Source: Sarcina sp. (lineage in GTDB: Bacteria > Bacillota > Clostridia > Clostridiales > Clostridiaceae). From it: 64,000 nucleotides of DNA. Made by a program: the position numbers and the translations under genes. Location: the NCBI GenBank assembly GCA_051650825.1, contig JBOFRC010000461.1:7817-71816 (forward strand), in the 5' to 3' direction. The notes beneath the pieces are model-generated. The model was not told the origin of the DNA, made no database searches, and worked only from the letters and a program-made list of their open reading frames with translations. Positions 36,177-56,016 of the stretch are shown one piece after another (position 1 is the first letter of the stretch; every line of letters begins with the position of its first letter).

Positions 36177-36626
36177 ATGAAAATAGCAGTAGGTTGCGAT
36201 CATGGTGGATTTGTGCTTAAGAGCGAAATCTTAGCACATTTAGAATCAAAAGGTATAGAATGTGAAGATTTCGGTACTTATAGTGAGGAATCATGTGATT
36301 ATCCAGATATATCAATAAAAGTAGCAGAGGCTGTTGTCGCTAAAAATTTTGATTTTGGTATATTAGTTTGTGGTACAGGTATAGGAATATCTATAGCAGC
36401 AAACAAAGTTCCAGGTGTACGAGCAGCATTATGTGGTGATACTTTTAGTGCTAGAGCGACAAGACAACATAATAATGCTAATATTTTAGCTTTAGGTCAA
36501 AGAGTTACAGGAGTAGGACTTGCTCTTGATATAGTAGATACATTCCTTTCACATGAATTTGAAGGTGGAAGACATGAAAAAAGATTAAATAAACTTTCTG
36601 CTATAGAAGAGAAATATTCAAAATAA
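36177..36626 (+). CDS. rpiB: Ribose-5-phosphate isomerase B
   Basis: GCDHGG, CGTGIG, HNNAN and EGGRH motifs. Confidence 0.96.
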   Translation: MKIAVGCDHGGFVLKSEILAHLESKGIECEDFGTYSEESCDYPDISIKVAEAVVAKNFDFGILVCGTGIGISIAANKVPGVRAALCGDTFSARATRQHNNANILALGQRVTGVGLALDIVDTFLSHEFEGGRHEKRLNKLSAIEEKYSK

Positions 36627-36705
36627 TATATGGAATTAGGAAGATAAGAACTATTAAAGAAAAGTTATAGAACCTTATAAAACCTAAAAAATATTTATGA
36701 AGGAG

Positions 36706-36947
36706 GAGTTGCCAGTTTATAAAGTGATATAATACATAATACAACTTGTTTTGGTTATACTGTAAAAGTTATATAAAAGCAGGTAATAATAGATCTTTAT
36801 TAAAAAGGCTATATATGTACTATGTGTTATGTGGAAATTTAAACCTTTGAACTGTCATAGTAAACCAAAGTAATATTTTATAAAATAGGACATGATAAGG
36901 GAATAATTAAATATGCTTTATAACGTTTTATGAGGTTATGGCAACAC
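36706..36947 (+). other. 242-nt nested fold-back element between the upp SD and start codon (MITE-like or structured leader)
   Basis: Terminal IR GTTGCCA/TGGCAAC, two further nested stems, flanked by AG on both sides. Confidence 0.5.
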
Positions 36948-36955
36948 AGATTAAC

Positions 36956-37585
36956 ATGAGTAAGGTAACACAAATAGCACACCCATTAATATTACACAAA
37001 CTAACAATAATAAGAGATAAAAATACAGGTGCAAAAGACTTTAGAGAACTTGTAGAAGAAGTTTCTATGCTTATGGCATATGAAGTAACAAGAGATCTTC
37101 AAATGAAAGATGTAGAGATTGAAACACCTATATGTAAATCAGTACAAAAAACTTTATCAGGTAAAAAAATGGCTATAGTTCCTATTTTAAGAGCTGGACT
37201 TGGTATGGTAGATGGTATGCTTAAATTAATACCAGCTGCTAAAGTTGGACATATTGGATTATACAGAGATGAAGAAACTTTACAACCAGTAGAATATTTC
37301 TGTAAATTACCTCAAGATATAGCAGAAAGAGATATTATTGTAGTAGACCCAATGCTTGCAACAGGCGGTTCAGCTGCTGATGCTATTGGTTTATTAAAAC
37401 AAAAAGGGGCTAAAAGTATCAAACTTATGTGTTTAATCTCTTCACCAGAAGGGGTAGAAGCAATTAAAAATGCTCATCCTGATGTTGATATATTTGTTGG
37501 AGCAATAGATGAAAAGTTAAATGAACATGGATATATTGTTCCGGGTCTTGGTGATGCAGGAGATAGATTATTTGGAACTAAATAA
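36956..37585 (+). CDS. upp: Uracil phosphoribosyltransferase
   Basis: [28 protein letters not shown] and PGLGDAGDR motifs; alternative ATG at 36938. Confidence 0.97.
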
Positions 37586-47471: not shown

Positions 47472-47547
47472 GCTGATATGGCTCAATTGGCAGAGCAGCT
47501 GATTTGTAATCAGCAGGTTATCGGTTCAAGTCCGATTATCAGCTCCA
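47472..47547 (+). tRNA. tRNA-Thr(TGT)
   Basis: Cloverleaf, anticodon loop TTTGTAA, encoded CCA. Confidence 0.97.
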
Positions 47548-47552
47548 AATAG

Positions 47553-47638
47553 GGTGGGGTTCCCGAGTGGCCAAAGGGAACAGACTGTAAATCTGTCGTC
47601 GTATGACTTCGAAGGTTCGAATCCTTCTCCCACCACCA
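47553..47638 (+). tRNA. tRNA-Tyr(GTA)
   Basis: Anticodon loop CTGTAAA, long variable arm, CCA. Confidence 0.97.
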
Positions 47639-47646
47639 TTTTGTAA

Positions 47647-47722
47647 GGTCGCATAGCTCAGCTGGGAGAGCACCTGCCTTACAAGCAGGGGGTCACAGGT
47701 TCGAGCCCTGTTGCGACCACCA
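47647..47722 (+). tRNA. tRNA-Val(TAC)
   Basis: Anticodon loop CTTACAA, CCA. Confidence 0.97.
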
Positions 47723-47739
47723 TTTAAAAAATAAATATT

Positions 47740-47815
47740 GCTGATATGGCTCAATTGGCAGAGCAGCTGATTTGTAATCAGCAGGTTATCGGTTCAAGTC
47801 CGATTATCAGCTCCA
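47740..47815 (+). tRNA. tRNA-Thr(TGT), copy 2
   Basis: Identical to 47472-47547. Confidence 0.97.
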
Positions 47816-47820
47816 AATGA

Positions 47821-47906
47821 GGTGGGGTTCCCGAGTGGCCAAAGGGAACAGACTGTAAATCTGTCGTCGTATGACTTCGAAGGTTCGAATCCTTCTCCCA
47901 CCACCA
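47821..47906 (+). tRNA. tRNA-Tyr(GTA), copy 2
   Basis: Identical to 47553-47638. Confidence 0.97.
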
Positions 47907-47934
47907 TTTTTAAATTTAATATAATAAGCATTAT

Positions 47935-48010
47935 GCTGATATGGCTCAATTGGCAGAGCAGCTGATTTGTAATCAGCAGGTTATCGGTTCAAGTCCGATT
48001 ATCAGCTCCA
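47935..48010 (+). tRNA. tRNA-Thr(TGT), copy 3
   Basis: Identical to 47472-47547. Confidence 0.97.
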
Positions 48011-48013
48011 TGA

Positions 48014-48099
48014 GGTGGGGTTCCCGAGTGGCCAAAGGGAACAGACTGTAAATCTGTCGTCGTATGACTTCGAAGGTTCGAATCCTTCTCCCACCACCA
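48014..48099 (+). tRNA. tRNA-Tyr(GTA), copy 3
   Basis: Identical to 47553-47638. Confidence 0.97.
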
Positions 48100-48180: not shown

Positions 48181-48288
48181 CTCTTATCAAGAGAGGTGGA
48201 GGGAGAGGGCCCGATGAAACCCGGCAACCAGTTTTTGAAGAAAAACTAAGGTGCCAATTCCTGCAAGTTTTTACTTGCGAGATAAGAG
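48181..48288 (+). promoter_or_regulatory. SAM-I (S-box) riboswitch aptamer
   Basis: CTCTTATCAAGAG..GGAGGGA..GGCCCGATGAAACCCGGCAACC..GGTGCCAATTCCTGCA..GATAAGAG upstream of metK. Confidence 0.97.
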
Positions 48289-54766: not shown

Positions 54767-54774
54767 TAGTATTT

Positions 54775-54976
54775 GGTGCTAGGTCTGTGATTGAAAGTCG
54801 ATGCCAGTTGCAGGCAAAACGATCCACGTAAGCTAAACAAAGTTTTAGTGAGCATGGTGCAGCTTAGAAGTAAGTCCTGCCGAGAAAATCGAGAGGGTTA
54901 GTAGTGAGAGGTTGAATCCGGGTAGCGAAAGCTCCAGCAGGCGAGTGTGGGGTCAAAGATCAGGTCAGCTAGCATC
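54775..54976 (+). ncRNA. raiA-motif RNA
   Basis: GAAAGTCGATGCCAGTTGCAGGCAAAACGATCCACGTAAG..AGCAGGCGAGTGTGGGGTCAAAGA; 5'/3' ends pair; canonical comF-to-hpf position. Confidence 0.9.
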
Positions 54977-54982
54977 TTTTAA

Positions 54983-55820: not shown

Positions 55821-55891
55821 CTATTTAATATTTATTAATTTTAGCTTGTAAGATTTTTATTAAAGTGGTATATTGTAGAAAAATAGACAAG

Positions 55892-55953
55892 TTCGTATAT
55901 GCTCAAAATATGGTTTGAGTGTTTCTACAGGGAGCCAAAATCCTAACTACGAA
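55892..55953 (+). promoter_or_regulatory. Purine riboswitch, guanine-specific (C74)
   Basis: TTCGTATAT-GCTCAAA-ATATGG-TTTGAGT-GTTTCTAC..GCCAAAA..AAC-TACGAA upstream of xpt. Confidence 0.92.
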
Positions 55954-56016
55954 TATATAGGTTTTACTATATGTTCCTTTTAGAACTCGGATTTGATAAA
56001 TATCAGGAGGCAACAT

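Follow-up and report, generated by a model that had tools for sequence, protein, structure and literature searches.

What separates upp from its ribosome-binding site? In the stretch of Sarcina sp. DNA that we analyzed (64,000 nucleotides of contig JBOFRC010000461.1; hereafter, the window), upp, which encodes uracil phosphoribosyltransferase, stands in the gene order prfA, sua5, rpiB, upp, wecB and lies 329 nt downstream of rpiB. The 64-kb window has a low, Clostridium-like GC content of 29%. Across related Clostridium loci taken from species representatives, upp begins with ATG AGY/GGA AAR in 80/80 cases, at the position equivalent to ATG 36956; a GGAGG-type Shine–Dalgarno (SD) sequence lies 5–10 nt 5' of the ATG, and the rpiB stop codon is only about 20–40 nt away from the upp start. 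This conserved start and its SD identify ATG 36956 as the true start of upp. The window has no SD at a usable distance from this codon, as the original prediction, made from the sequence alone, had remarked. A GAGG at 36932–36935 is too close (2 nt) to an in-frame ATG at 36938, which would add MATQIN to the protein, and too far (20 nt) from ATG 36956. We find that the gap holds a 303-nt insertion, which is very likely a non-autonomous derivative, lacking open reading frames (ORFs), of an IS607-family transposon (serine transposase TnpA plus TnpB) whose TnpB is guided by a RAGATH-18-type right-end RNA (reRNA, or omegaRNA).

The boundaries of the insertion were defined by comparison with its nearest relatives that have an empty site, three metagenome-assembled genomes (L084–L086) with 98% identical Upp and about 92% identical DNA. 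Their rpiB–upp spacer is 25 nt long (TAA TATATGGACTTAGGAGGAGATTATA ATG), the empty sites read TATATGGACTTAGGAGGAGATTATAATG and BLAST homology to the window breaks at 36644 / 36948, leaving 36645–36947 as extra DNA. The window junctions read TATATGGAATTAGGAAG / ATAAGAAC ... GGCAACAC / AGATTAAC-ATG. There is no target-site duplication: only 1 nt is common to both junctions, and the exact empty site is present in the relatives. The ancestral SD of upp is still recognizable to the left of the element as TTAGGAAG, a single G>A difference from the TTAGGAGG of the empty sites. The original prediction had instead placed a 242-nt fold-back between upp and a split-off SD, AAGGAGGAG at 36700–36708. That motif and the complementary segments quoted with it are indeed present, but the homology breaks enlarge the extent to 303 nt, and because AAGGAGGAG falls within 36645–36947 it is not the SD that upp lost, which lies 60 nt further upstream.

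None of the 80 species representatives carries the element at upp (all have the short spacer), nor do the other close upp loci fetched, including those of six candidate Upp proteins (P0002–P0007), all of which are empty sites. A public contig from fish gut (L001) has the same insert as the window, and on one public contig a 215-aa 'extended' Upp is annotated that starts at ATG 36938, inside the transposon right end. A further organism (organism A, runs X9–X16) has a 249-nt insert at the same upp site. The first ~24 nt and last ~31 nt of that insert match ours, and its interior is less than 80% similar, giving no alignment at ≥80% identity. The genome of organism A also holds a further copy of the right end, followed by GG-ATAGGTTTTAAT-ATG.

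Sequence comparison shows homology of both ends and the reRNA of the element to those of the IS607 family. What remains of the transposon is its left end, followed by an SD-like motif, the inner inverted repeat, an extended −10 promoter and, up to the right end, a full-length reRNA scaffold; tnpA and tnpB have been lost (Table 1). Searches of the window by tblastn with the TnpA of locus L083, a serine recombinase, and with two TnpB proteins gave no match, and the + strand of the element has no ORF longer than 34 codons. Short, without an ORF, bounded by inverted repeats and homologous to full-length elements, it resembles miniature inverted-repeat transposable elements (MITEs) and palindrome-associated transposable elements (PATEs). 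The original prediction's suggestion of a MITE-like insertion thus holds, given the empty sites of near relatives and the IS607-type ends, promoter and guide-RNA scaffold. The AG that it had noted on both sides of its block also finds an explanation: IS607 TnpA recombines at a core dinucleotide present both where the target-adjacent motif (TAM) ends and where the scaffold ends, excision is scarless and no target is duplicated (10.1101/2023.11.20.567912), and the AG/AG flanks correspond to this shared dinucleotide.

The left end is supported by a MAFFT alignment with nine family left ends, which have in common ...TATAGAAsyTTATAAAAC. By BLAST it is 71–72% identical over 59–67 nt to the left ends of two ORF-less relatives (minis), L405 and L426, in which related composite elements occupy two host sites; the alignment with these spans 36642–36706, and one with a third mini, L385, spans 36660–36734. 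Both alignments take in the internal AAGGAGG TTTATGAAGGAGG, and that with L385 also takes in AGTTGCCAG, so the 'SD' and the 5' fold-back arm of the original prediction are conserved parts of these mini elements. GTTGCCA/TGGCAAC and TTATAAAG/CTTTATAA, likewise, are repeat motifs of the element's ends. The predicted promoter element TGATATAAT, which the original prediction had raised as a caveat, aligns by eye with a promoter that full-length relatives have inside their left end. Similar sequences are AATGATATAAT, found in front of tnpB in L082 and L093, and TTTATAAAGTTTATTATAAT, located in the left end of L454. Our consensus promoter scan omitted 36725–36733 because there is no −35 element at 16–18 nt. 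Positions 36730–36945 align by BLAST with the minis L422 and L385 (67% identity over 227 columns, E = 6e-23). In plasmid and phage collections, only the right part of the element found matches; the left-end part found none.

The right part carries the reRNA scaffold. IS607-family TnpB nucleases are guided by an reRNA built around a RAGATH-18 core (PMC11061315), and Rfam RAGATH-18 (RF03064) matches 36844–36903 with 35.3 bits (E = 5.4e-5; gathering score, 44.9), the sole Rfam match with E below 0.1 between 36500 and 37100. The helices are kept, the terminal loop is shorter and conserved bases are altered. Positions 36813–36945 are 74–78% identical to DNA about 20 nt downstream of annotated tnpB genes on a C. 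butyricum megaplasmid and a P. acidaminophilum replicon (L082 and L083), the latter adjoining an 'IS607 family transposase'; such tnpB-linked full-length relatives score 62–77 bits on RAGATH-18. We scanned public metagenomes and viral contigs for the right-end motif, which gave 124 loci, and aligned the scaffolds of 34 distinct family members as the basis of a covariance model, R1. Covariation strongly supports the structure of the scaffold in this alignment: 16 base pairs change on both sides, and 0/500 shuffles reach the observed values. R1 matches the window once, at 36813–36947, over model positions 1–135 of 135 (84.8 bits, E = 1e-18); independent full-length elements score 116–149 bits and truncated ones 29–51 bits. 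The alignment contains an invariant pairing of the P1 loop CGUUGU with the 3' GCAACG, which we infer to be one of two pseudoknots that the cryo-EM structure is reported to contain. In the window scaffold, the helices are preserved, as are five of its six pseudoknot pairs, with a compensatory U-A in one case. The scaffold ends in ...TGGCAAC followed by the core dinucleotide AC; the corresponding dinucleotide is GG in the family and AG in organism A. Scans of viral contigs with two 14-nt DNA patterns (GGAGGAGTTGCCAG and GGTTATGGCAACNNAG) gave chance matches only, and BLAST of the element against the viral-contig loci from the 14-nt pattern scan added nothing new.

Table 1. Features of the rpiB–upp interval and of related elements; coordinates refer to the window unless a locus is named.
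Feature	Coordinates	Strand	Basis or remark
Inserted element, ORF-less IS607-family derivative (very likely)	36645..36947	+	303 nt; homology to L084–L086 breaks; junction ambiguous by 1–2 nt
Ancestral upp SD, target motif (TAM) of the insertion	36636..36643	+	Now TTAGGAAG; empty-site relatives TTAGGAGG / AG
Left end	36645..36698	+	Homologous to left ends of full-length and mini IS607/RAGATH-18 elements (...AAC..TATTAAAG..TTATAGAACCTTATAAAAC)
Internal SD-like motif GAAGGAGGAG, part of the element	36699..36708	+	Aligns with TTTATAAAGGAGG (L405/L426) and TAATGAGGGAGG (L385) at the same place after the left end
Inner inverted repeat GTTGCCAGTTTATAAAG, 5' arm of predicted closing helix	36708..36724	+	Mirrors right end; AGTTGCCAG conserved in L385/L422
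Extended −10 promoter element TGATATAAT (predicted)	36725..36733	+	Read from sequence
Spacer, promoter to reRNA	36734..36812	+	Weak resemblance to L422/L385 mini; lacks their 64-nt conserved middle motif
Complete reRNA scaffold	36813..36947	+	R1 match over full length; Rfam RAGATH-18 match
reRNA P1 hairpin	36820–36823 with 36831–36834	+	
RAGATH-18 core	36844–36903	+	Rfam match
reRNA 3' hairpin	36916–36935	+	
Right-end terminus TGGCAACAC	End of 36813..36947	+	
Guide-equivalent flank AGATTAACATGAGTAAGGTA	36948..36967	+	By position; abuts right end; contains upp start codon
rpiB (ribose-5-phosphate isomerase B)	36177..36626	+	Upstream of upp; ORF; Pfam LacAB_rpiB on identical gene in L001
upp (uracil phosphoribosyltransferase)	36956..37585	+	Conserved start ATG 36956; Pfam UPRTase
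64-nt motif of the minis	L385 5080–5143; L422 2002–2065; L364 717–780; L426 367–428; L405 2573–2634		Copies oriented by the right end (some reversed relative to the stored locus)

Several observations weigh against this identification. The RAGATH-18 score is below the gathering threshold, and the window scaffold departs from the family at invariant positions, with AGUAA for AGUAG at 36873 (a variant in the same metagenome, X1, still has the consensus G) and GUGUUAU for GCGUUGU in the P1 loop. The present left flank, GGAAG, is a non-canonical TAM. BLAST of the intergenic region and the R1 search found no second copy of the element in the 64-kb window, and with tnpA and tnpB also missing from it, mobility and a trans-acting TnpB in this organism are hypothetical. 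None of the RNA-seq runs searched for the element had a match. As to the origin of its architecture, left end, SD-like motif and inner repeat may have moved as one unit, as the composites at the different host sites of L405 and L426 suggest, or the arrangement may have arisen by a nested insertion followed by a deletion, L422 having the inner unit alone behind a host SD.

We then considered why the element lies where it does. The left-end flanks of ten family elements end in GAGG, GGAGG, GGGAG or similar, in keeping with the published TAMs AGGAG and GAGGG (PMC11061315). At 50 of 60 distinct insertion sites (83%), the start codon of a long ORF follows GGCAAC by 5–14 nt, compared with 7.9% at random positions and 13.1% after any GG. 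The family thus inserts preferentially between SD and AUG. In low-GC Firmicutes, a GGAGG/AGGAG-type motif is the Shine–Dalgarno sequence; in practice, what the family targets is the SD, and the insertion at upp is typical of it. We found no statement of this TAM–SD connection in the literature searched. The start codon that the right end itself brings (ATG 36938 here; TTG in the GG-type family) was considered as a portable start and rejected as a general mechanism: in the GG-type family, our count found it in frame with the host start in 13 of 55 cases, which is no enrichment. The right end also contains a nine-codon upstream ORF (36930–36959, MRLWQHRLT) whose TGA stop overlaps the upp start (ATGA). 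We dismissed it as a coupling device, since it has no SD of its own and is probably a chance occurrence.

These features suggest how the element may have arrived and what it does to upp. The family integrates at a GGAGG/AGGAG-type motif by serine recombination at the core dinucleotide, without duplicating the target. As this motif is the SD, the element landed between the SD of upp (TTAGGAGG, now TTAGGAAG) and AGATTAAC-ATG. The roughly 20 nt downstream of the scaffold serve as the guide in IS607 TnpB systems (PMC11061315). The element promoter would transcribe an reRNA with the upp start region as its guide, and would also read through into upp. With TnpB supplied in trans, such an reRNA would target the empty upp site for cleavage, which would favor retention of the element. 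TnpA in trans could once have excised it; today, the element is probably immobile, because both core dinucleotides (AG at the left-end flank and AC at the right end) differ from the family GG. We found no terminator-like site between rpiB and upp, so upp should be transcribed, by read-through from rpiB and from the element promoter. Its translation is most likely reduced, because its own SD is now about 310 nt away and no usable SD is nearby.

An RNA-guided transposon family that hits ribosome-binding sites raises the question of how host genes stay expressed after insertion, and the minis that carry an internal SD next to a repeat able to pair with the right end suggest one possible answer. 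It is the answer implied by the original prediction: GUUGCCA (36708–36714) would pair with UGGCAAC (36939–36945) and some 230 nt would loop out, bringing the element's SD at 36700–36708 to ~10 nt from AUG 36956 and making the insertion largely silent for translation. Such folding would add to the transposon origin rather than compete with it, and we consider it unlikely. RNAfold of 36690–36965 indicated folding slightly better than expected by chance, with −54.8 kcal/mol against −44.9 ± 4.0 for shuffled sequences, with 1/200 shuffles as good. The closing helix, the outermost of five nested helices originally drawn, belongs to the minimum-free-energy structure, with a probability of 0.47–0.99 depending on the flanks included. 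The same layout (AGGAGG, 0–7 nt, 5' arm ... 3' arm, GG, 3–8 nt, start codon) recurs in four minis, with closing-helix probabilities of 0.98–1.0 in L385 and L422, 1.0 in L405 and 0.25 in L426, and the effective SD-to-AUG distance when folded would be 5–12 nt by our count. The upp gene is intact, and a second lineage that also has an insert here differs from it at three listed positions in the first 145 nt, none of which, judged from the codons, alters the protein. Hairpins are known to bridge SD and AUG in phage T4 genes 25 and 38. Yet the arms are the element's inverted repeat, for which an explanation at the DNA level exists, and the right-end arm is invariant, so the closing helix offers no covariation to test. 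The other four helices are not in the minimum-free-energy structure, and bases of CTTTATAA (36916–36923), AACCAAAGTAA (36863–36873) and TGGCAAC (36939–36945) take part in the conserved reRNA fold, itself supported by covariation; in that fold, the 3' arm pairs with the P1 loop. The helices are AU-rich, the overall z-score is only −2.47 and full-length family members (1.7–2.5 kb) cannot plausibly fold out in this way, yet show the same insertion preference. A more general proposal seems to us somewhat less likely again, namely that ORF-less IS607 minis have a built-in translation bypass: a portable SD would stand directly before an inner repeat, pairing of this repeat with the right end would fold the whole element out of the host mRNA, and translation of the downstream gene, whose own SD had served as the integration target, would continue. 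Because the same right-end bases form the reRNA pseudoknot, translation of the host gene and maturation of the guide RNA would compete and be mutually exclusive, an intron-free counterpart, if true, of the conflict between intron and guide RNA described for IStrons.

The remaining alternatives concern what the intergenic DNA is. Removal of a 241-nt block alone (36707/9–36947/9), with AAGGAGGAG as the original SD of upp, gives GGAGGAG-ATTAAC-ATG, which matches GGAGGAGATTAA of L003 and L004, and a unit starting ...GTTGCCAG stands alone behind a host SD in L422. We nonetheless hold this geometry to be improbable, as it leaves 36645–36699 unexplained, a segment that the closest relatives do not have and that is itself homologous to IS607 left ends. 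The left flank of the empty site, TATATGGA-TTAGGA, is found at 36628–36641 and not beside 36700, and removal of the full 303 nt restores an equally good empty site, apart from a single G>A change. The original prediction had also suggested a new pyrimidine-responsive leader. The position before a pyrimidine salvage gene and the alternative pairings that can be drawn would suit a riboswitch, a PyrR-type attenuator or a similar switch, but RAGATH-18, rather than any known aptamer or attenuator, is what Rfam recognizes here, there is no terminator-like site, and the element's relatives adjoin tnpB and precede unrelated genes. The sequence is missing, moreover, from all 80 relatives and every other close upp locus fetched, where spacers are 20–40 nt, and we judge a pyrimidine-sensing leader highly improbable. 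Equally hard to credit is removal of the element from the mRNA by self-splicing or self-cleavage, in the manner of an IStron. IS607-family IStrons in Clostridia do splice exactly at the transposon boundaries (10.1101/2023.11.20.567912). Between 36500 and 37100, however, even a cutoff of E = 10 gave no match to a group I intron or to a self-cleaving ribozyme, subtracting the 135-nt reRNA from 303 nt leaves too little room for a group I core, and the related minis are without a ribozyme match too. An ORF-less IS607 derivative remains our preferred reading of the interval.

The related loci have further features of their own. Between the left end and the reRNA, ORF-less IS607 minis carry a 64-nt motif (CTATTGTGAGTCCCATATGTTGCGAAAGTGATATAGTCATGGAGTAGAATCCTGAGGGTGTTAG) that is 82–100% identical across two mini families; considered as a ribozyme or known RNA, it has no Rfam match, and it is absent from the window element. 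Locus L364 is probably an assembly chimera or a recombinant: to the left of the repeated mini element it has the flank of L385, and to the right that of L422. L405 contains two tandem thiamine pyrophosphate riboswitches (790–898 and 1027–1134). In L367 (from ~766 in a copy oriented by the right end), a sequence resembling the 3' end of a tRNA, GGGGTTCGATTCCCC, comes immediately after the right-end motif. In phage and plasmid copies of this tnpB family, a divergent ribbon–helix–helix gene replaces tnpA between left end and tnpB (L082 2608–2766; also L093, L096, L094 and L109). One phage lineage has a 139-nt element (L102 9412–9550; also L092, L095, L097–L101, L355, L360, L368 and others) that ends in ...TTATGGCAACAG, like the window right end, has no R1 match and hence no reRNA, and is positioned precisely where the upstream gene has its stop codon (..GGAGGGGAG / element / TAG). 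An ATG in its right end (ATGGCAACAG) shares the reading frame of the ORF that follows, just as ATG 36938 shares that of upp. Elsewhere in the window, Rfam matches at gathering level comprise a raiA RNA (54774–54977, 199.6 bits), an S-adenosylmethionine riboswitch (48181–48288), a purine riboswitch (55873–55969) and seven arrayed tRNA genes (47472–48096) that include repeats of a 73-nt and an 83-nt unit.

Among known systems, the split ribosome-binding sites of T4 genes 25 and 38 are the nearest parallel to the putative fold-out, in that a helix with one arm immediately 3' of the SD and the other immediately 5' of the spacer could join SD and AUG; in the window, by contrast, the loop-out would be about 230 nt and a mobile element, and the reRNA fold competes for the 3' arm. 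ORF-less elements that carry an omegaRNA and are served in trans are known for IS200/IS605 (PMC10055086). These PATE-like elements (Meers et al. 2023) are likewise protein-less, with transposon ends and a guide RNA served by the TnpB and TnpA of other copies; they differ in their Y1 transposase, where the window family has a serine transposase, in peel-and-paste movement as opposed to double-stranded recombination and in RNA family. The IS607 mini-IS and IStron of Clostridium botulinum (Zedaveinyte et al., 10.1101/2023.11.20.567912) share with our element the common core dinucleotide, the lack of target duplication and a scarless donor joint that consists of TAM plus guide target, and an ends-only 'mini-IS' was mobilized in trans in the laboratory; their TAM, in contrast, is TGGG, and their group I intron, which splices at the element boundaries, has no counterpart in the window element. 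Also among the closest are IS607-family TnpB elements with a RAGATH-18-derived reRNA, such as ISFba1 (Ren et al. 2024, PMC11061315). Their scaffold, made up of 5' flank, core and 3' flank, is homologous and likewise extends to the right end; the target motif is of the same purine-rich kind, and the DNA flanking the right end forms the guide. Unlike them, the window element is without tnpA and tnpB, its scaffold is divergent, below the Rfam gathering score and 135 nt long rather than about 187 nt, and its right end reads ...CAACAC, not ...CAACGG. Our element is an unremarkable yet clearly diagnostic remnant of an RNA-guided transposon, of a kind already known. For annotation, the real start of upp and the SD that it lost are identified, and a sub-threshold intergenic RAGATH-18 match can flag a protein-less IS607 relic.

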